Positions 35,538 through 45,334 of a stretch of DNA of 64,000 nt are shown here, piece by piece. Positions within the stretch are counted from its first letter, which is position 1; each line of letters opens with the position of its first letter. The stretch lies in the sequence record NC_105514.1. One strand, given 5' to 3'. The notes beneath the pieces are model-generated. The model saw only the letters and a program-made list of their open reading frames with translations, was not told the origin of the DNA and did not search any database. The translations under genes and the position numbers were made by a program. The stretch comes from Escherichia phage JLBYU40.

Positions 35538-35575
35538 AAACCCCAGTGGACAAAATCCACTGGGGTTTTCTTTTA
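35538..35575. terminator. Bidirectional intrinsic terminator between early (plus) and late (minus) units
   Basis: CCCCAGTGG-acaaaat-CCACTGGGG flanked by an A-run upstream and T-run downstream. Confidence 0.8.
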
Positions 35576-37342
35576 TTGTGATACTAATTGTACCTTTAAT
35601 TGCTCAAGCTCTTTCTCTAGATCTTCAATCCGTTTAATAAGATCTTGCACAACATGCATAGTGTCAAGAAGCATTGGAGTTGTATCTAGTTCCTTTTGCT
35701 CCTGCTCTATTCCGTCATCATTATAAAATTTTCTAGTTTTTACATAAAGTGGTTCTATAGTCTCTACTTGCTGAGCAATAACCCCACGTCGGACACGAGA
35801 TTTTTCATCGTTATTATATACAAAGGATTGGAATTCTAATCCTTTTAATACCTCGATGGACTTAGTTGCGTCTATAGCCTTAATATCATGCTTTAAGCGA
35901 GAATCAGATACAGCATTTAATTGCAAAGTATAGGTTGCTGAAGCACCTGGCCACCAAGAATAAAAATAAATACTATTATTATTCGGCTGAATTTTTAAAC
36001 GCACACCAAATTTATTATCATCATCTCCCGCTACCTGCCAACAAGAATCTGCAAATGAGCCTAAGTCATTATGAATTAATCCAAAATGTGCAGATGTCTT
36101 ATACCCTGCGGAAGAAGACTGGGAACCGCTCAATATACTATAAAAGTTAAATGTACTACCTATATTGACCTCGTTCTGAGAAAGAGTACCTTGTACCCGG
36201 CCAGTCTGAGACCACGCCATGCCAGTAACTAATCTAGCTTTAAAACGATCCGTTACAAAATCCCCATTATCTACAAGCTGGGCGGAATTCGATTTACCGG
36301 TAGATTTATTGTCTATTAGTAGTTCAGTAGAGTAGGTGCCACCAATAGTAGCTTTAGCTCGTAGTGTACTTACAGCCTCACTACTAGTACCTACTTTATA
36401 CTCAGATAGTACACTCCCTCCATAAACAGTAGTACCAGTATTAGGTTTGACAACACCACCACTAATAACACTCCACGAAGTCTTTGCAGCCACGAACCCA
36501 CCAGAAGCACGGATTACCCAGACACCTATAAAGCTGTTTGGAATAATAGTACCTTTTATTCCATAACGCCCATAAACAGGGTCCGCTAAGTTTGCATCAA
36601 AACTAAATCCGTATTGGTTATCAGGATTAACTACGGCAAATGATTTAGATGCACCTCCAGGAGCGGCACCTAAGCCGTTTTCACCACCAATCGCCCCAAT
36701 AAGACCAAATCTAGATGAATATCTATTAAGCGCTTCTTCATATGCACCAGCAATAGCGCCAGGAAAACTACCAGTAATATTGGGTGCTGCAGCTTCTGAT
36801 ATTGAACCAGCTTGACCAGCATCTCCCCCACCGTCACCACGAGCGAATAACCCTTTGATTGAATCTAGTTGCACACCATTACGATCTGGGACGCGGAAAG
36901 TAGTGGTACCATCTCCCGTAGAATATTTCCCACGTTGTTTGATATCAGACACCCAAATGTCATCACTAATTGCCCCCACCATTTGAGCGTAAGCCCAAAG
37001 CTCCGGCCAGTCAGCCCTGTTAAGAAGCTGCCCATCAGAAACTACCTCATAAGGTTGAATATACGCACGGCTATCTCGAAGATGAAAATCCCCCACCCCG
37101 TAGTTCATAACACCATTCATTGTGGGTCCTACTGTGCCAGTATTAAGTTTGTTCTCCACCCAACGCTTAGTTGCGGCATCATAGTCCCCAACAGGATCCC
37201 CCGCAAGAGGGGTGGACCCAATAGGACGCACATTTAACCATGCTGCTGCACGGTCTGCTAAGTCACTTAAATTATTATTCTTGTTAAGTGACTCATTTTT
37301 AAGTTTTGTAATATCCGTAGGAATTACTGTTTTAGTTACCAT
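35573..37342 (-). CDS. Lateral tail fibre protein B with C-terminal intramolecular chaperone (S74-like) domain
   Basis: C-terminal SDSRLKHDIKAI...EFQSFVYNNDEKSRVRRGVIAQQVE chaperone signature; Gly-rich fibre region. Confidence 0.75.
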   Translation of the reverse strand: MVTKTVIPTDITKLKNESLNKNNNLSDLADRAAAWLNVRPIGSTPLAGDPVGDYDAATKRWVENKLNTGTVGPTMNGVMNYGVGDFHLRDSRAYIQPYEVVSDGQLLNRADWPELWAYAQMVGAISDDIWVSDIKQRGKYSTGDGTTTFRVPDRNGVQLDSIKGLFARGDGGGDAGQAGSISEAAAPNITGSFPGAIAGAYEEALNRYSSRFGLIGAIGGENGLGAAPGGASKSFAVVNPDNQYGFSFDANLADPVYGRYGIKGTIIPNSFIGVWVIRASGGFVAAKTSWSVISGGVVKPNTGTTVYGGSVLSEYKVGTSSEAVSTLRAKATIGGTYSTELLIDNKSTGKSNSAQLVDNGDFVTDRFKARLVTGMAWSQTGRVQGTLSQNEVNIGSTFNFYSILSGSQSSSAGYKTSAHFGLIHNDLGSFADSCWQVAGDDDNKFGVRLKIQPNNNSIYFYSWWPGASATYTLQLNAVSDSRLKHDIKAIDATKSIEVLKGLEFQSFVYNNDEKSRVRRGVIAQQVETIEPLYVKTRKFYNDDGIEQEQKELDTTPMLLDTMHVVQDLIKRIEDLEKELEQLKVQLVSQ

Positions 37343-37351
37343 TATAAAACC

Positions 37352-37630
37352 TTACGCCCACTCTCTAAGAGGCTGTTCCAACTGAACTATAAAAGGCTCA
37401 AAGTATTCATAAGTAAAGGATTCACCAAGAATCCTTACATTAACATAGTATCCTTCATTACGGGTGTATCTAGGTTCCTCATCGCCTGGTGCGGAGATTT
37501 CAGTATAAGTATAGCCAATCTCGTCCAGGAGAAACATATCTCGTAACTCTTCATTTTCTTGCCAGTTTATTCCAACTAAGAAATTTTTATATTCGTTCTT
37601 GTCTTTAAATTTTAATATTATATCTTTCAT
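37352..37630 (-). CDS. Hypothetical protein between the two fibre genes (92 aa)
   Basis: Translationally coupled (ATGA overlap with the upstream fibre gene). Confidence 0.4.
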   Translation of the reverse strand: MKDIILKFKDKNEYKNFLVGINWQENEELRDMFLLDEIGYTYTEISAPGDEEPRYTRNEGYYVNVRILGESFTYEYFEPFIVQLEQPLREWA

Positions 37631-39999
37631 ACAGACTCCCTCATTTGACGATCCGTTAATTCTTTATGCCAGATTCTAAAATTTCTGACATGCCCGAAAA
37701 GATGTTTCCCACCATCTGCACTTATGCCGCCGATACGAAGATTTTTAGATAAACCAGCTTTCCATGTTGTTTTCACAGGCGCACCGAACACAGCGTTTGT
37801 TACGCATCTTAATTCTGAGCTTTTGTTGCAAACAAAACCCGTCACCATTTTCCCGCTTGTTTTTGTTGATACTGGCGTAAATGACTGACTGACCCCCAAC
37901 TGAGAATAAGGCAGCGGCTCTACTGTATCGCTTGATGGAACCCTGAAAGCAACTAATAACTGGTCTTCTGGTGCATTTGCTACATGTACTATCCTTGGTG
38001 CTGAGTTTGGGGCTATATCCCAATTTCTATTTACCTCAACAAGTAGACTTAACGGTATAGAGGATGGTTGATTGCAATCAGTTGGTATTAGGACCATGTC
38101 ACTAGCTCTTGTGGCGGGCGTACTGCTTGTAATTATGAACGATGAAGCGCATGACCCTTTTTCAATTTGCGGAGTAGTCACCTCAACAAAACTAGAATCA
38201 TCATAAGTGGCATCGGCTTTTTGCACAATCTGAATTCCACCGTTAATATATGCTGAGTTATCTGTAACTTTATAAACAACCTCTATAGCAACCCATTCAC
38301 CATCCTGAACAACATTTTTCACAGTGATGTTAGACGCATCCTGCCCGGACGTGAATGTAGCTAGCGTGTCGCTGTCAATAAAAAGAACAGCAACAGTAGC
38401 AGGTGTTTCTCCTTTGCTAAATCTAGCAACAAATCTTAGATTATGTCCTCTTGCCCTAAACGATAGTGTAACTGCGTCATCTTTAACTACAGATATATTG
38501 TTTTGCGAGTTACCTAATATAATCCCATATGTACCAGTAGAGCCAGAGTAAACACCAGGCCCGAACGTTGCATATTTAAAACCACGATCATCGGTTTTTG
38601 TTTCACTTTTGCTTAGCCCTGAATTCGAGTTCCATAATTCTGGCGCGTTTGAATTCGCAAAATAGTTAGTTCTCTGACCTTCAATAAGCAGACCTTCTTT
38701 TTCAAAACGTGGCTCATTAATTTCTGCAATGGTAAGAGCGCCGGACTTATTAATATATGTCGCAGTTGATGCACGGGTAAAGCTAACAATCTTGTCGCTA
38801 GGCAGTGTTATTTCCTCATCACCGACTGTTATTTTTTTATAGCCTGGTGCAAAGCCGGTGATCATATCTAGAGAATCATTAAACGGTATCCATACATCTG
38901 GAAGAGGTTGAATGTCGGGGGTAGAATTAGCAGCAGCTTCTGATCTATCAGCCTCAGTTTTTGAACGGTCGGCTTCAGTTTTAGCAGTATTAGCACTATT
39001 GGCAGCACTAGTAGCTTGTTTTCCTGCTTCAGTAGCAGAATTGGCAGCACTAGTTGCAGAAGTTGCAGCTTGGTTTTTTAGCGCGGTAGTTTCTGTTATC
39101 GCGCTATTTTTAATGCCTTGTGTATCTGTTTTTAACTGCGCAACATCTGCCTTTATAGCTGTTGTCTCTGTTACAGCACTGTTTTTAATGGCCTGAGTAT
39201 CTGATTTTAGTTGCTCAACATCTGATTTTAAGCCTTGAATAGTAGTTACTGACTGACTAGCTGAAGTTGCGGAACTAGCTGCGTTAGTCTCACTAGCTTT
39301 GGTTTTAGTCTCACTAGCTTTTGCATTAGTCTCACTAGCTTTTGCATTAGTTTCAGAGGTTTTTGCAGCAGAAGCTGATGTAGCAGCTTGTGTAGAGAAT
39401 GTTTCCGCCTCATTCCTAAAACCACTGGAATCCGCAGCGGAAGCGGCAGCATTAGTCTCACTGACCTTTGCATTATCCTCACTAAGTTTTGCCGCTGCAG
39501 CCGAAGCAGTAGCATTAGTTTCACTAGCCTTAGCATTAGTCTCGGAGGCCTTAGCTTTGGTTTCACTAGACTTTGCATTAGTTTCTGATGTTTTTGCATT
39601 AGTCTCGGAGGTTTTAGCCTTAGTTTCACTAGCTTTCGCATTAGTCTCGGATACTTTAGCTGCTGCGGCTGATTCTGCAGATTTATCCGCTGATGCAGCA
39701 GATTGAGTAGCAGATGTAGCAGACTGAGTAGCAGAAGCTTCTGAAGCTCCGGCAGAAATAGCAGCTTCCTGCTCCGAATTCTTAGCATTAAGCTCTGAGG
39801 TCTTAGCTGCTATCTCAGAATCTTTTGCAGCTGCAGCAGATTTAGCAGCGGCCTCTATAGAAGATACTAACTCACTAGCAGTAATAGAACTAATAGAATT
39901 TCCAAGAATTACTGTATATCTAGGAAATTTACTAGCAGTAGCTTTCGTATCATCTATATTCAGTATTTGTTGCACAATAATTTTAGTAGTTACCGCCAT
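37627..39999 (-). CDS. Lateral tail fibre protein A (repeat-rich shaft, jelly-roll-like C-terminus)
   Basis: N-terminal SETNAKA heptad repeats; C-terminal ...HLFGHVRNFRIWHKELTDRQM. Confidence 0.7.
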   Translation of the reverse strand: MAVTTKIIVQQILNIDDTKATASKFPRYTVILGNSISSITASELVSSIEAAAKSAAAAKDSEIAAKTSELNAKNSEQEAAISAGASEASATQSATSATQSAASADKSAESAAAAKVSETNAKASETKAKTSETNAKTSETNAKSSETKAKASETNAKASETNATASAAAAKLSEDNAKVSETNAAASAADSSGFRNEAETFSTQAATSASAAKTSETNAKASETNAKASETKTKASETNAASSATSASQSVTTIQGLKSDVEQLKSDTQAIKNSAVTETTAIKADVAQLKTDTQGIKNSAITETTALKNQAATSATSAANSATEAGKQATSAANSANTAKTEADRSKTEADRSEAAANSTPDIQPLPDVWIPFNDSLDMITGFAPGYKKITVGDEEITLPSDKIVSFTRASTATYINKSGALTIAEINEPRFEKEGLLIEGQRTNYFANSNAPELWNSNSGLSKSETKTDDRGFKYATFGPGVYSGSTGTYGIILGNSQNNISVVKDDAVTLSFRARGHNLRFVARFSKGETPATVAVLFIDSDTLATFTSGQDASNITVKNVVQDGEWVAIEVVYKVTDNSAYINGGIQIVQKADATYDDSSFVEVTTPQIEKGSCASSFIITSSTPATRASDMVLIPTDCNQPSSIPLSLLVEVNRNWDIAPNSAPRIVHVANAPEDQLLVAFRVPSSDTVEPLPYSQLGVSQSFTPVSTKTSGKMVTGFVCNKSSELRCVTNAVFGAPVKTTWKAGLSKNLRIGGISADGGKHLFGHVRNFRIWHKELTDRQMRESV
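39283..39662. repeat. Imperfect 21-bp tandem repeats encoding SETNAKA heptads
   Basis: Reiterated ttagtctcactagcttttgca units on the plus strand. Confidence 0.7.
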
Positions 40000-40421
40000 T
40001 ATTTAGTTACCCCATCACTGATAAATACTTTACCCTCCATTATACGAAAGGAGCTAATAGCTGATCCTATGACATCTCGTGTCATAATTATATCATAGTA
40101 TCCTGCAAAACGTTGGCGAGGATTATATTTATCTCTTTCTTTGGTGGCTTTGGCACCAATATTCTCTACCGCCTCTATGGGCAAACTTATGGCTATAGCA
40201 CCTTGAGCAGCATCAATAATTTTAGTAGTAAAAGATGCCAAAGTCTCCGCATTCTCATCAAGACTGGCCTTTATAGTACCTCTTAGAGAATACCCTGTTA
40301 AGTTAACAGGGGTATTTGTAGGTGGATAAGTACTATCGTCAACATCTAAGAACTGCATCATTAGACCATAAGGTACTTTTTCATCTATTACTAAGTCTAT
40401 AACTCTATTTTCAGTACTCAT
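39999..40421 (-). CDS. Putative tail collar protein (p132-like)
   Basis: 140 aa, position between fibre and baseplate genes. Confidence 0.45.
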
Positions 40422-40427
40422 TATTTA

Positions 40428-42500
40428 TTACCTTATATGGATATACCCACTATTTAGGTCTATCTTCATCTTGTAGTATGCCTCAGGGTTTCCCGATAAT
40501 GCAGCATTCCTATCATAAATGATGTTAACACCGATCTGAGATAAGAAAGCATTTCCTGCTACAATTTTATCTGCCGTCACCGTTCCGTTAACAATCATGT
40601 TTCCGTGGAGAACCATTGCAGGGTTAACCCAACCAGACCCATTCCATTGCCTTGTAAATGCTGATTGTGGGGCATTACTATTAAATTCAGTTAATACATC
40701 GTATTTAACTGGTGGAGAACCGAAGTTACTTTGAAAGAAGGAATTAGCTTGTCCATCATCCCAACCACCTAAACCTGCTATACCTACAGAATACATCCCA
40801 GGACCACGTTGTCCATCATGCCCTATAGTACCTTCAGTACCACTCCACTGAACTACATCCGACCAGCTAGTACCCTCTAATAACCTATTAGTAACTGGAT
40901 CAAGCGTACCTGTAGTGGCATAGATATTTTGTGTCATATCTGTACGGTTAGGTGGAGTTTTTGACCAACCAGGAGGAGGATAATCTTGTTCTAGTGGTTT
41001 AGCAGGTAGAGATGTTGCTAACTTATAAACAAATACTGTTTGCTTACCTTGCATACCAGTACCAAGATCTACATCGCCATTAGGAGTTCCAATAACTACC
41101 CCACTAGAAATACGTAGCACATCACCATCATAACGAATCCACTGTGTGGCATTACCAATGTCTAATTTAGCTTTGGCAGAGGTATTATCCATACCCATCC
41201 AAATACCAGAGTTATTATCCCCCCAAGATTTACCTTGAGTGTAAATTGCTGGATTATCCTTACCAGATAAGTTAGTCATGATAAAGTTCGCAGCATTAAT
41301 ATCTCTAGTAATTACTTTACCATCAACGTTAACAACACGGTTTATGGGGTCAAAAGAAATAGGTGCTTTTCCTTCTTCGTCTAGCAGACCAATGTTAATA
41401 GCACCAGTAGCTGCGTCGATTAAGAATGTCTGTCTCCAGATTTCTCCATCTTTCATGCTGCCCTTAATAAAGGCATAATTAACATCAATACCCGTCTCAT
41501 TGACAAAGCTGTTGTCTAGGGGAGTATCTTCATTAAGTATAAACGTTACAGGAGCTGATTCTGTTATATCTTGCTTATTTGGTCCCCAGGCAATTGATGA
41601 TACCTTAAAAGTATGCTCAACTTTCCACGGGAATGATATAATCGTTGCAGCTCTAGCAGCCCCAACGTTTATCTTTTGAGCTTTAGCCCAGCCAGTCTTA
41701 GCGTATTCTTCAGAGTTTATATAAGTAACCAGAAATTCACGGACATTAGCACCCGCACCACGTTCCCAGTCCCACTCTATTCTGACATCATATCGTTCCT
41801 TACCATCTGCAATTCGTGCAGCTTTAAAGGCAATGTTAGTAGGTGCAGTAGGTGGTACAAAATTATAAGCTACAGTGAAAATGCTCGGATATTCATAATA
41901 ACCAGATGAGTCAACTGTAATACCATCTGGCATCGTAACTTGACCAGATATTCTGATCTTATAGTCGCCAACAGGAACACCACCAAATTTGATAGTAGGT
42001 CCCAATGCGCCTATATAATATTTAACCCATTCACTATCTTCTGATGCAGTACTTTTTAATTCAATAGTGCAGTAACTAGCTTCACCAGCAGTCTCTACAA
42101 CAACTATTGGAGCACCAACACCAACGTCAACGGGTTCTGATTCAGATCTTGCTGTAGTAATTATTGGCTTTTCCTTTGTTCTAAAGTTAGTTTCATTAGA
42201 GAGGTTGATACCAATCTTAGCTTCCAGTAACTCTGAGTCAATAATTGAGTCATAGAAAGCCCCCTGAATCTCATAGGAGGTAGAGGGGGTTAGATTATTA
42301 ATCATTACGAAGAAAGTATCTATACCGGTGTAATCACGTCTATCTATACTTTCTCCTATTTTTAACCAAAAAGATCTACCAATAACATCATAATCAGTAT
42401 AAATGGAGTGCTGGACATAAGCCAAAGTATATCCAGTCATTATACTATTTAAGACCATTTTGGCTGGTGCATTATTTGAAATCATTAAATGGATGCCCAC
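40428..42500 (-). CDS. Baseplate/distal tail protein (pb4-like)
   Basis: 690 aa, synteny. Confidence 0.5.
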   Translation of the reverse strand: MGIHLMISNNAPAKMVLNSIMTGYTLAYVQHSIYTDYDVIGRSFWLKIGESIDRRDYTGIDTFFVMINNLTPSTSYEIQGAFYDSIIDSELLEAKIGINLSNETNFRTKEKPIITTARSESEPVDVGVGAPIVVVETAGEASYCTIELKSTASEDSEWVKYYIGALGPTIKFGGVPVGDYKIRISGQVTMPDGITVDSSGYYEYPSIFTVAYNFVPPTAPTNIAFKAARIADGKERYDVRIEWDWERGAGANVREFLVTYINSEEYAKTGWAKAQKINVGAARAATIISFPWKVEHTFKVSSIAWGPNKQDITESAPVTFILNEDTPLDNSFVNETGIDVNYAFIKGSMKDGEIWRQTFLIDAATGAINIGLLDEEGKAPISFDPINRVVNVDGKVITRDINAANFIMTNLSGKDNPAIYTQGKSWGDNNSGIWMGMDNTSAKAKLDIGNATQWIRYDGDVLRISSGVVIGTPNGDVDLGTGMQGKQTVFVYKLATSLPAKPLEQDYPPPGWSKTPPNRTDMTQNIYATTGTLDPVTNRLLEGTSWSDVVQWSGTEGTIGHDGQRGPGMYSVGIAGLGGWDDGQANSFFQSNFGSPPVKYDVLTEFNSNAPQSAFTRQWNGSGWVNPAMVLHGNMIVNGTVTADKIVAGNAFLSQIGVNIIYDRNAALSGNPEAYYKMKIDLNSGYIHIR

Positions 42501-45334
42501 TCCACAGACTGTTCTCCATCATCCCCTTCAGCTCTAATACGAAAATACAATTTTCTATTTATACCTAGAGCACCGCTGTTCTGGAGAGCAAAATCTGCCT
42601 TATTATACGTTAATAAATAGTCATAAGTATACTGATTTTCAATACGTACACTTCTTAACATCCTATTTTGTGAATCGTGTATTTCAAGGGTATAAAATAT
42701 ACTCTCTATTATATCTTCTTCAGGTATTCTATCCCAGGCTAGTTTCACATCTGGGCCAACAAACTCAGTTACATCTCCGGAAGCAGTATTAGTTACCCTA
42801 AAATTAGATACTACACTAAGGTTTTTAGCAGAGTTAAGTTCTATAGACAGAGTCACCGGGGAACTTCTTCTACCATTAATATCTACTGCTCTTATCTCAA
42901 ATATAGCCAGACCTGCTGGTTCTCCAATTATTTCTTGGATCATACGTTCGTTAGGGTTGGTCTCTAACTGTTGTACTATGTAAGGTTCGGCATGACCTGA
43001 GTGCACAATAGAGTAATAAACTACATTATTGGTTAGACTCGGAAGCCAGGATAACTCACCATTTTTACCTATAGAGCCTACTAAACCACCAGGAGTAGGG
43101 GTATACTTAAAGTCTCTAGGAGGAAGGACATTATTACTAATATCGGGAATATCATTACCGCTATTATCAACCTGCTCAGAGTTGATGAATACATCTTTTC
43201 CATACTCCTGTAGAGTAACATTTATCTTTCCTTCTCTAGAGTTTTCCACTTCGTCTACTAGGAAGTACTTCTTATCCCACCCATAACGGTCGTATGTAAA
43301 TGCAATAGCATCATTAGGCTCAATACCAATGAATTGATATGGCAATGAGAAAGAAAGTGTTCTTGAGTATCTAGATTTCTTAAGTTCCCTATCAGCAAAA
43401 CTTCTTGCAGTATAGTAATTAGTAATATTAGCAAAAGATAGTTGTAATTTTTTATCTAGGTTCTTGTCCTGTTCCTTATACTTGGAATTATAGAACGTAA
43501 TGGAATTAGTTTTCCAGCTAAGGGCGGGATCTACGATAGATGCTTGAACTGAGTTGAATTTATTTCTACCAGTAGTATCTGATAGCTCCAAATCACCGTA
43601 AGTATCTAGAAAATTAATCTCTAACGGAGTATTAGAGTATTTTTCTACAGTAACTCTATACTGGCCAGATAAATTGTTAATAGCCCCACCGTAGGACTCT
43701 AATAAACCTTGCACATTTTTAAATACTGATTCAGATGTATCCAGAATAGTATTCATTTGTACTATTTGTCTATTTTCTGCTAGTGGATCAGTCCACCCAA
43801 CGTATCTCCAATATGGCTGCCAAGATACCTGATAGGATTCATCTATAATATCTAAAATAGCTGCTTCCTGTATTAGTTGCTGAAGAGGGAACTGATCAAT
43901 GGTAATATCAGCACCATATCTATCAGAGGTTAAGTAATCAAGTGTTTGCCAAATACCATTTAAGCTAGTACTATTAGCAGTTACTCTACCATCAGAATGA
44001 TAGACTTTTACTTTTTTACCTTGAATTTCAGCACTAACTTCTGGAATCTCAGTCCTATTTTCATTAATAGTGAAGCGCACCACTGCGTATGCAGTATCTA
44101 GTAGCTTATACCTAGCATCCCAGTATTCAGGGCCATTGCCATTCATATTTTGAAGATAGAATCCGCGGTTTTTAGCGATGTCCACTAATACATCCGAGGC
44201 CGTTTGATCAGATTTTCCGTGATACGTCCAAATCCTTATATCACCATTACCATCATTATATTTATATTCCTGACCATGCACAGAAGGACTACTGGAAGAT
44301 ATTCCTGATGCTATTCTTTGCATGGTGTCTCCGGCTACTTTTTTAACACCGAAACAGGTTCTAGCAGAGCTATCATTAGAATCCATACAAATCATGGGGT
44401 TATCACCAAAGGAGAAATCAAGAAAACCATCAATCTCCCCTTCAGCAAAGGCGTATACGACATAAACTATGTTGGGATTGTGTAGTTCTGTATCAGCAAA
44501 AATTGGTATTCCTGGTATTTTCTGTACGCCATAAACTACTGTGATATATTTAGCAGCAAGGTTAAAATCTATATCTACTTCCTTAGTGACAGTTTCATAG
44601 TATTTTTTAAGGCTGTAGCTTCTAGATAAGCCAAATAGTTTTTTCTTTGATTTTAGCTTATACCTTTCTTCCTGTACTTGGTACTTTGCTAGTATAGATA
44701 TACTCTTATTAGAATGAAAGAACCCATAGTCTTCTTGGTACTCAGGTCTTTTAGCACCGTTAGATGGTACTAACTGTCCAGCTACAACTTCAAGTCCCCT
44801 ATGGGAGGCGTCATCAGTATATCTACCATTAACTCTATCAAAGTCATAGAATTGGTTAGAACAATTCCAGGTAATTGTAGAGGTTCCTACTCCAGAGGTA
44901 CTAATATTATCTTTAATGCCCCCTCCAGTAATCCTCCCCCTAAAGTATAGTAGAGGACCATTTGTATCTGGGTCTACTGGTAGAATAGAACCATCTTCGG
45001 TAATAATTGCTTGATGAATTGATACGGTTCTATCTAAGAAGGATACACCATTTTGCACTAGTTTTAGTACTTCATCCTGTGCTGTACCAGTAATAGTAAA
45101 AGATAGACTACCAATAGATAAATCTCTATTTTGTTTGTGTGTGCTAATAGACTTAACTTTACCCGCCTGGTATAGAATGCCATTATATAGTACATCCCTA
45201 AAATAATCAGTTAAATAAATAAAAGCAGTACTAGTACCAGTAGAGCCAGGTAACTCTAGAGAAATTAGACTAGCAGTTTTTATTTTGCTATTATTTTTTA
45301 AGTAGTTTCTAGCACTATCTAGTATTTTTTTCAT
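42485..45334 (-). CDS. Baseplate hub protein (pb3-like)
   Basis: 949 aa, synteny next to the Dit-like gene. Confidence 0.6.
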   Translation of the reverse strand: MKKILDSARNYLKNNSKIKTASLISLELPGSTGTSTAFIYLTDYFRDVLYNGILYQAGKVKSISTHKQNRDLSIGSLSFTITGTAQDEVLKLVQNGVSFLDRTVSIHQAIITEDGSILPVDPDTNGPLLYFRGRITGGGIKDNISTSGVGTSTITWNCSNQFYDFDRVNGRYTDDASHRGLEVVAGQLVPSNGAKRPEYQEDYGFFHSNKSISILAKYQVQEERYKLKSKKKLFGLSRSYSLKKYYETVTKEVDIDFNLAAKYITVVYGVQKIPGIPIFADTELHNPNIVYVVYAFAEGEIDGFLDFSFGDNPMICMDSNDSSARTCFGVKKVAGDTMQRIASGISSSSPSVHGQEYKYNDGNGDIRIWTYHGKSDQTASDVLVDIAKNRGFYLQNMNGNGPEYWDARYKLLDTAYAVVRFTINENRTEIPEVSAEIQGKKVKVYHSDGRVTANSTSLNGIWQTLDYLTSDRYGADITIDQFPLQQLIQEAAILDIIDESYQVSWQPYWRYVGWTDPLAENRQIVQMNTILDTSESVFKNVQGLLESYGGAINNLSGQYRVTVEKYSNTPLEINFLDTYGDLELSDTTGRNKFNSVQASIVDPALSWKTNSITFYNSKYKEQDKNLDKKLQLSFANITNYYTARSFADRELKKSRYSRTLSFSLPYQFIGIEPNDAIAFTYDRYGWDKKYFLVDEVENSREGKINVTLQEYGKDVFINSEQVDNSGNDIPDISNNVLPPRDFKYTPTPGGLVGSIGKNGELSWLPSLTNNVVYYSIVHSGHAEPYIVQQLETNPNERMIQEIIGEPAGLAIFEIRAVDINGRRSSPVTLSIELNSAKNLSVVSNFRVTNTASGDVTEFVGPDVKLAWDRIPEEDIIESIFYTLEIHDSQNRMLRSVRIENQYTYDYLLTYNKADFALQNSGALGINRKLYFRIRAEGDDGEQSVEWASI

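Follow-up and report, generated by a model that had tools for sequence, protein, structure and literature searches.

Lateral fibre loci of T5-like phages

Lateral tail fibres set which O-antigen types a T5-like phage overcomes and are therefore the main lever for host-range engineering, the O-antigen being known as a dispensable primary receptor for the lateral fibres of T5, DT57C and Bas32 (Golomidova 2016; Humolli 2025). T5 carries one ltf gene (Golomidova 2016), whose product pb1 (Ltf) is a single L-shaped chain of 1396 amino acids (aa). In IrisVonRoten (Bas32) the locus consists of gp22, gp23 and gp24 (Maffei 2021; Humolli 2025, PMC11990801), with a galectin-like domain assigned to the proximal Gp22 and a distal Gp24 modelled as a T-shaped fibre with two receptor-binding domains (RBDs). 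Here we describe the lateral tail-fibre locus of Escherichia phage JLBYU40 within a 64,000-nucleotide (nt) stretch of sequence record NC_105514.1 (hereafter the window). Judged by its sequence, the locus is a Tequintavirus lateral tail-fibre module of the IrisVonRoten / mar004NP2 / T5_ev219 / AKFV33 / SIA3lw type, and it very probably encodes the L-shaped fibre as a multi-domain assembly that is serially split. Open reading frames (ORFs) and junctions were taken from the minus strand, the junctions by direct reading, and all positions are those of the whole 64-kb stretch. Three genes make up the locus:

37627..39999, minus strand: proximal lateral tail-fibre gene, 790 aa, 82.5 kDa (phrog_1419, E = 5.9e-207)
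37352..37630, minus strand: gene of a 92-aa protein, 11.2 kDa, isoelectric point 4.4, ATGA-coupled to the proximal fibre gene (phrog_1361, function unassigned, E = 7e-33)
35573..37342, minus strand: distal lateral tail-fibre gene, 589 aa (phrog_6921, E = 4.9e-178)

An earlier note on this DNA, made from the letters alone, had placed the three ORFs at 39999..37627, 37630..37352 and 37342..35573 on the minus strand, and its coordinates, lengths and domain calls (a repeat-rich shaft, a jelly-roll-like proximal C-terminus and a self-cleaving distal chaperone) agree with ours. Its central claim, that a fibre locus encoded by one gene in T5 is here split into separately translated pieces, likewise holds; since the distal half of LtfA, a single chain in DT57C, has its homologue in the 589-aa protein, the wording "split instead of one gene" is apt. 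The overlapping stop and start codons that it described were found at the 790/92 junction (GTATGAAAG, overlapping by the 4 nt ATGA, with GGGAG shortly before it) but not at the 92/589 junction (TAA GGT TTT ATA ATG), where a 9-nt spacer intervenes, and the packing is tight in either case. Nor is the layout rare: the complete distal N-terminus of the split type is present in about 58 phage records, and GenBank has held this layout since phages like AKFV33.

The same three-gene layout is annotated in T5_ev219, mar004NP2 (vB_Eco_mar004NP2), PMBT29, SPLA5b, IrisVonRoten, EC100, L6jm and others, with T5_ev219 matching the region at 93% nt identity over 92%. Relative to IrisVonRoten, gene order and junctions are identical, including the 9-nt spacer; the features of that type, a LamG-like proximal end lacking a Peptidase_S74 (S74) domain and a gene of ∼92 aa overlapping the end of the proximal gene, were both present. 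The two loci also share a galectin/LamG-like proximal C-terminus, the 92-aa gene (78% identity to gp23) and a distal fibre, with a chaperone and putative RBD1 and RBD2 regions, that is 98–100% identical outside the RBD1 insert, and they differ in the lectin domain, the RBD1 insert (identities below) and the shaft, which is 6 aa shorter in the window. T5 pb1 resembles the locus in genomic position, N-terminal anchor, presumed O-antigen-binding role and C-terminal S74 domain, but is one gene with neither a lectin domain nor a small gene; no sequence similarity between the T5 tip and the window tip was found at E ≤ 0.01 in a PDB search. The layout is thus known from dozens of T5-like genome annotations and a published structural prediction, and what is new in the locus is how it combines known alleles. 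New in the literature searched are the finding that LamG-ended fibres of different phage families are systematically linked with the small protein, a presumed docking peptide specific to split loci, and the swapping of lectin alleles independently of the small protein.

Proximal fibre

The 790-aa protein is orthologous to IrisVonRoten gp22, mar004NP2 gp053 and SIA3lw ORF42, and was divided into four segments:

39865..39999, minus strand: N-terminal anchor, aa 1 to ∼45, predicted to insert into the LtfC ring (55% identity to DT57C LtfA aa 1–202)
38911..39864, minus strand: alanine-rich coiled-coil shaft, aa 46–363 (27% Ala; a periodicity peak near 7 residues, at 7.07, among the top peaks)
38671..38910, minus strand: conserved joint segment, aa 364–443 (the most conserved part of the whole family)
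37630..38670, minus strand: ConA/LamG-like lectin domain, aa 444–790, hypervariable cassette 1 (profile matches and AlphaFold2 (AF2) model)

Residues 1 to ∼215 are homologous to DT57C LtfA 1–228 (phmmer against PDB 8hqz_d, E = 5.6e-36), and the N-terminus also matches phrog_24369, a 1396-aa profile (E = 4.5e-49). In the DT57C structure, this part of LtfA forms a lasso in the LtfC ring and the start of a three-helix coiled coil. Within the shaft, 21-nt tandem repeats at 39280–39657 (detected with TRF) encode 11 SETNAKA-type heptads (aa 117–242). Protein length among close relatives is 782, 790, 796 or 808 aa, with variation in the shaft, and in an evolution experiment with the T5-like phage phi37 (PMC12541327) the Ltf shaft is reported to have lost 42 aa in one case and gained 28 aa in another, both lengths being multiples of 7, which suggests that repeat slippage tunes fibre length. 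The same experiment yielded Ltf mutations at residues 468–556, which would fall in the lectin domain if phi37 has this type of fibre.

The joint is 76–100% identical among T5-like, T1-like, Queuovirinae, Dhillonvirus and lambdoid loci, as against 27–62% for the neighbouring lectin domain. Its predicted local distance difference test (pLDDT) score was below 50 in the monomer model, and the model suggests that the joint may be an oligomeric interface. The lectin domain matched NCBIfam GTA_spike_fiber with 53.6 bits (cut-off 36) and Pfam Laminin_G_3 with 24 bits, below the cut-off of 27.6; many of its homologues are named LamG-domain proteins, and many carry PF13385 in precomputed tables. The AF2 core (pLDDT 80–92) has the two-sheet jelly-roll fold that had been surmised for this C-terminus, and no Pfam match to Peptidase_S74 was found in the 790-aa protein. 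RcGTA head spikes bind capsular polysaccharide, and the head-spike fibre domain of RcGTA and related ConA-like carbohydrate-binding modules share the GTA_spike_fiber match and the jelly-roll fold with the window protein. Unlike the RcGTA domain, the window lectin domain caps a tail-fibre coiled coil, and its ligand binding is putative.

Distal fibre

The distal protein, orthologous to IrisVonRoten gp24 and SIA3lw ORF44, was divided as follows:

37265..37342, minus strand: N-terminal peptide of split loci, aa 1–26, MVTKTVIPTDITKLKNESLNKNNNLS, presumed docking element (58 phage records match aa 1–90)
36473..37264, minus strand: conserved stem and collar/gp12-like RBD1, aa 27–290 (nearly identical to DT57C LtfA 526–627, then divergent)
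36473–36997, minus strand: RBD1 insert within the preceding segment, aa 116–290, hypervariable cassette 2 (from allele comparison with relatives)
35909..36472, minus strand: distal tip region, aa 291–478 (98% identical among the window, T5_ev219, mar004NP2 and Bas32)
35576..35908, minus strand: Peptidase_S74 intramolecular chaperone, aa 479–589 (Pfam PF13884, E = 3.7e-12)

Residues 14–367 match DT57C LtfA 526–873 (E = 5.6e-116), residues 435–582 match LtfA 915–1072, and residues 30–583 match DT57C LtfB 206–785 with 42% identity. Because both fibres are matched, the 589-aa protein corresponds to the receptor-binding cassette that ends each of them, here as a standalone protein. The first 26 residues are peculiar to split loci: among the listed matches to aa 1–90 (58 phage records), all lie at or adjoining a split-type locus, while the single-chain fibres of DT57C (LtfA), fp01, SP3, LL5 and PGT2 match the distal protein only from aa 27–30 onward. 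The motif M-x-T-x-T-x-IP-x-DI-x-x-LK also opens the ORF that follows the small gene in 31 IMG/VR loci whose distal modules are otherwise different.

A TFRVPD motif lies at aa 148 in the RBD1 region, where a Pfam Collar match fell below threshold; "Gp12-like RBD1" is the label given to this region of the Bas32 homologue, and the assignment of the tip as a T5-like RBD2 comes from that structural study alone (Humolli 2025, PMC11990801). A T shape for the window's distal fibre rests likewise on the published model and on orthology to Bas32 gp24. The chaperone is well defined, with a Pfam Peptidase_S74 match at aa 479–531 (46.8 bits, cut-off 22) opening on the motif SDSRLKHDI at aa 479, which has the conserved S-D-x-R-x-K cleavage pattern, and it aligns with the chaperone regions of DT57C LtfA and LtfB and with 6f45. 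Cleavage is predicted before Ser479, which would leave a mature distal protein of 478 aa (∼51 kDa).

Recombining cassettes and glycan specificity

Protein identity between the window and its relatives varied sharply along the fibre:

lectin domain (proximal aa 444–790): 99% to T5_ev219, 32–39% to mar004NP2, 32–39% to Bas32
RBD1 insert (distal aa 116–290): 40–60% to T5_ev219, 91–100% to mar004NP2, 41–61% to Bas32
tip and chaperone (distal aa 291–589): 98–100% to T5_ev219, 98–100% to mar004NP2, 98–99% to Bas32

The window thus joins a T5_ev219-type lectin domain, along with that phage's allele of the small protein (99%), to an RBD1 insert of mar004NP2 type; the locus has two independently reassorting hypervariable cassettes. 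On these alignments the window is a recombinant combination of alleles, neither T5_ev219 nor mar004NP2 carrying both, and a single genome displays the proximal lectin domain and the distal RBD1 insert as separate, swappable cassettes around a very conserved connector. Such reassortment fits what would be expected of separate glycan-binding sites under diversifying selection. Given the low identity of its lectin domain and RBD1 insert to those of Bas32, the glycan specificity of the fibre is probably different from that phage's, which uses O16 (Humolli 2025, PMC11990801). The dual receptor or O-antigen specificity raised in the earlier note is therefore matched by the two cassettes, as a fit and not as proof. 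Its two-tip or branched fibre fared unevenly: several receptor-binding domains are plausible, given the Humolli 2025 prediction and the two cassettes, but branching of the DT57C type is not what the locus encodes (see below).

Proposed assembly of a serially split fibre

From these features we propose the following assembly. By homology, LtfC forms a collar into which the trimeric 790-aa fibre inserts its N-terminus; the proximal fibre continues as a heptad-repeat coiled coil, followed by the 80-aa joint and then the ConA/LamG-like lectin domain. The distal fibre is translated separately and, again by homology, is a separate virion protein with its own S74 chaperone, which would cut itself off before Ser479 once the trimer had folded. 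The distal 26-aa N-terminal peptide may dock at the proximal joint, with three lectin domains projecting sideways at the knee. The lectin domain, RBD1 and possibly RBD2 would bind surface glycans, giving up to three glycan-binding sites, and independent exchange of the lectin domain and the RBD1 insert by recombination would retarget the phage to other O-antigens. Through the ATGA overlap, synthesis of the 92-aa protein would be coupled to that of the proximal fibre.

The small protein between the fibre genes

Homologues of the 92-aa protein were found with tblastn in 169 phage records, covering T5-like phages, Drexlerviridae, Queuovirinae, Dhillonvirus and lambdoid Jouyvirus including phage 21, and a divergent homologue follows a LamG-ended fibre in rV5-like myoviruses (e.g. 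CarlMeissner; hhalign probability 97.9%). The gene is under purifying selection, with ratios of nonsynonymous to synonymous substitution (dN/dS) of 0.09–0.21 relative to its relatives. No Pfam or NCBIfam match was found for the protein. When 1.84 billion representatives were searched exhaustively with a profile of the family, just 71 matched, nearly all of them stand-alone proteins of 85–125 aa; long PKD-repeat matches to the profile look like compositional noise and were set aside. The AF2 model (pLDDT 79) has an alpha+beta fold with no informative structural match, and the invariant C-terminal tail QPLREWA is predicted to be disordered.

With the 92-aa family alignment, 80 IMG/VR loci were fetched, 77 of which include the upstream region. 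In all 77, representing at least five phage groups, the stop codon of a LamG-ended ORF overlaps the start of the small gene by 4 or 1 nt, so that the small gene lies directly downstream of a fibre gene that has no intramolecular chaperone. Downstream of the small gene the loci differ. The 31 loci with the motif-bearing ORF have quite different distal modules, among them putatively T-shaped fibres of 583–589 aa, S74 tips of 231–241 or 346–351 aa, and a 340-aa tip lacking S74; in 44 redundant phage-21-like prophage loci there is a 97-aa membrane protein and then sitABCD. Among 45 phage-21-like loci without a distal fibre gene, drawn from the IMG/VR set and GenBank phage records, the small gene was intact in every one, with dN/dS of 0.1–0.45.

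In phage 21, Stf has the same joint and LamG module. The gene after it, again joined by an ATGA overlap, encodes a 92-aa homologue with 48% identity and lies at the position where lambda encodes the chaperone Tfa; the phage 21 locus differs in a lambda Stf-type N-terminus and in a membrane protein and sitABCD in place of the distal fibre, and its small protein is unrelated to Tfa in sequence, matching no Pfam or NCBIfam family. In the records of Lambda_ev203 and phage 21 (loci L004 and L010, 5084–9126) the small gene precedes the 97-aa protein, which has two transmembrane segments, and the sitABCD manganese/iron transporter, so that this cargo occupies the place of the distal fibre of other lineages.

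The idea that the small protein co-varies with the lectin allele was rejected, as there was no significant correlation (Spearman 0.21, p = 0.14, 52 non-redundant loci). In close T5-like relatives the N-terminal half of the small protein does track the lectin allele, which reflects linkage. One prophage-type locus (L082, IMGVR_UViG_2537562091_000005) combines a lectin domain 62% identical to the window's with a small protein only ∼37% identical, a mismatch which shows that a lectin allele can pass from one lineage to another and leave the small gene behind. As there is no co-variation with the lectin allele, the small protein must recognise conserved surfaces, for which the joint, the invariant C-terminal strand (...RHLFGHVRNFRIWHKELTD...) and the docking peptide are candidates.

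In Aeromonas phage AhSzq-1 (Shenzhenvirus; locus L011, 3588–6236) the joint and lectin domain form a separate 336-aa gene that overlaps a 103-aa ORF, followed by a 395-aa fibre. The 103-aa ORF contains a GYHANVR motif reminiscent of GYYVNVR, but its similarity to the 92-aa family is not significant and it was rejected as a distant homologue; the locus may represent the module in a still more divided form. In Salmonella phage VSe12 (locus L014, 5289–6231) the distal gene is broken into ORFs of 64 and 277 aa and lacks S74, and is either a pseudogene or a sequencing error in the record.

Candidate roles of the small protein

We favour the view that the 92-aa protein is dedicated to the proximal fibre, as a partner of that fibre's conserved C-terminal module. 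It always accompanies a LamG-ended fibre, even where no distal gene is present, and the evidence therefore leans towards a proximal partner and away from a distal adaptor. Within this view, we put at about an even chance that it is a trans-acting assembly factor, which may stay bound; this weighting follows from a proximal fibre that has no chaperone of its own, from the location of the gene at the place of lambda tfa, and from its persistence in two lineages that have no distal fibre.

Several observations weigh against this assembly and this role for the small protein. The protein has no likeness in sequence or fold to the known tail-fibre chaperones (lambda Tfa, T4 gp38/gp57A, Mu/P2 type). 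It is unreported in virion proteomes, where it would have been undetectable (bands of 19–132 kDa in SIA3lw, eight proteins in mar004NP2). The small protein and the docking peptide occur together in every lineage but the phage-21-like and rV5-like ones, a distribution that equally fits a structural joint. The docking geometry is inferred from the published prediction for a homologue and from co-occurrence, and sugar binding by this particular pair of lectin and RBD1 alleles is plausible but putative. Virion proteomics of rV5 was considered as a test of virion presence and discarded, as rV5 itself lacks the LamG/small-protein pair.

A possible, if rather doubtful, alternative is that the 92-aa protein is a structural adaptor that, together with the 80-aa joint, makes a socket for the distal 26-aa peptide, much as LtfC does at the joint between fibre and tail; it would then be a universal connector through which phage families could trade distal fibre modules. 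The joint (76–100% identity), the small protein and the docking peptide are adjacent, with variable cassettes on both flanks; the strictly invariant PLREWA tail is predicted to be disordered, as is typical of a docking peptide; the ATGA coupling would fit synthesis together with the proximal fibre; and IrisVonRoten has the gene annotated as "tail fiber protein". Set against this, the gene is intact and under purifying selection in the 45 phage-21-like loci without a distal gene and is kept in rV5-like phages too, the protein has no similarity to LtfC, and virion proteomes never report it, though these data could not have shown it. We tentatively raise the prospect that joint, 92-aa protein and 26-aa peptide form a previously uncharacterised plug-and-socket connector shared across families, in which the 92-aa protein would represent a structural joint protein of a new class and not a chaperone. 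Such a connector, if real, would span T5-like, T1-like, Queuovirinae, Dhillonvirus, lambdoid and in part rV5-like phages and would let lectin domains and distal modules swap independently.

That the protein is something other than an assembly factor or a joint adaptor appears unlikely. Of such roles, an unrelated passenger in the fibre operon (a moron, anti-defence or exclusion gene) is very improbable: no annotated family was matched and phage accessory genes often encode small acidic proteins of unknown fold, but in siphovirus and myovirus lineages alike the gene is strictly paired with one particular fibre C-terminal module, usually overlapping by 4 nt, its sequence has no evident signal peptide or membrane segment, and such fixed synteny across families would be abnormal for passenger genes. 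The small protein matters in practice: it accompanies every LamG-ended fibre in >200 phage genomes, with no functional experiment in the papers and databases searched, and whether its gene must move along matters when fibre modules are transplanted between phages.

Alternative readings of the fibre genes

DT57C and DT571/2 (Golomidova 2016; Ayala 2023, PDB 8hqz) offer another model for a locus with two large fibre genes, in which LtfA is complete with its tip and LtfB forms a side branch on a phiEco32 gp14-like domain. The window shares with them an LtfC collar, an LtfA-type anchor, a coiled-coil shaft, two large fibre genes downstream of ltfC, and a distal cassette and S74 chaperone homologous to those of both LtfA and LtfB. 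LtfA, however, is a single chain of 1076 aa with its own tip, chaperone and gp14-like branch site, whereas the 790-aa protein has no S74 domain, its similarity to LtfA ends at about aa 215, the gp14-like docking region (LtfA 223–471) is missing, and nothing in it aligns with LtfA 229–525. The 589-aa protein aligns only from LtfB residue 206 and so lacks LtfB's gp15-like N-terminal anchor; DT57C, for its part, lacks a lectin domain, and its ltfA and ltfB are not separated by a 92-aa gene. A branched fibre of this kind is therefore scarcely credible here.

The earlier note had named, as the finding that would overturn its proposal, a single gene that sequencing errors had broken into the three ORFs. 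Such a gene, whether broken in sequencing or in assembly, we regard as practically excluded: the 92-aa and 589-aa ORFs do lie in one reading frame, parted by TAA and three codons, but the 790-aa and 92-aa ORFs lie in different frames with a canonical ATGA overlap and GGGAG upstream, the same boundaries recur in genomes that were sequenced independently of one another and in 77 loci from metagenomes or prophages, the 92-aa gene is under the purifying selection described above, and proteomics of SIA3lw virions recovers separate products. In the Salmonella phage SIA3lw, whose ORF41–44 have the layout of the window, gel electrophoresis and mass spectrometry of virions identified ORF42 (82 kDa) and ORF44 (64 kDa) as separate proteins, the masses given in that paper being theoretical only; in mar004NP2 the proximal fibre (gp053) was confirmed by mass spectrometry and was the only fibre protein detected. 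The frame shared by the 92-aa and 589-aa ORFs (window 37342–37630) also occurs in Bas32, T5_ev219 and mar004NP2. It is absent from the T1-like, Queuovirinae and Dhillonvirus loci and so looks coincidental; stop-codon read-through and an ancestral 92/589 fusion were ruled out on the same grounds.

Neighbouring genes and other observations

The serially split fibre locus occupies the usual T5-like position at the end of the tail operon, directly downstream of pb3-pb4-ltfC and in synteny with annotated T5-like genomes. On the minus strand the order is pb3 (45334..42485), pb4 (42500..40428), ltfC (40421..39999) and then the 790-, 92- and 589-aa ORFs, and this order, with a convergent dUTPase gene, is identical in IrisVonRoten, T5_ev219, mar004NP2 and SIA3lw. 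Pfam searches identified four pb4 domains (PF24168-71) and LtfC upstream of the fibre genes. The ltfC/790 junction is TAATG, a 1-nt overlap, and internal promoters in the operon did not exceed the level of shuffled sequence. Two flanking features were mapped:

39999..40421, minus strand: ltfC, 140-aa collar/assembly protein anchoring the lateral fibre to the tail tip (Pfam PF23926 LtfC, E = 1.2e-13; role from the DT57C cryo-electron microscopy structure)
35538..35568, both strands: strong intrinsic terminator acting in both directions, where the fibre operon meets the convergent dUTPase gene (G+C-rich stem of 13–14 bp, 7 G-C pairs, T-runs on both strands)

The window's ltfC (39999–40421) is one intact ORF of 140 aa. 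In the T5 reference genome the homologue is split as gp135/gp136, probably through a frameshift error according to the DT57C structure paper.

Some records under other host labels carry closely related fibre sequence. OR847733 (Listeria phage LM 4-11-1) and MG065692, MG065654, MG065666 and MG065635 (Campylobacter phages C13, C15, A12a and C12) contain T5-like or rV5-like coliphage tail-fibre sequence, with matches reaching 100% protein identity, and are probably mislabelled or contaminated.

Lastly, at the pb4/pb3 boundary (window 42485–42500) the mechanically called pb4 ORF begins at a GTG, overlaps pb3 by 16 nt and encodes 690 aa; its relatives are annotated either from the same GTG (Bas32) or from five codons downstream, giving 685 aa (T5_ev219, mar004NP2).

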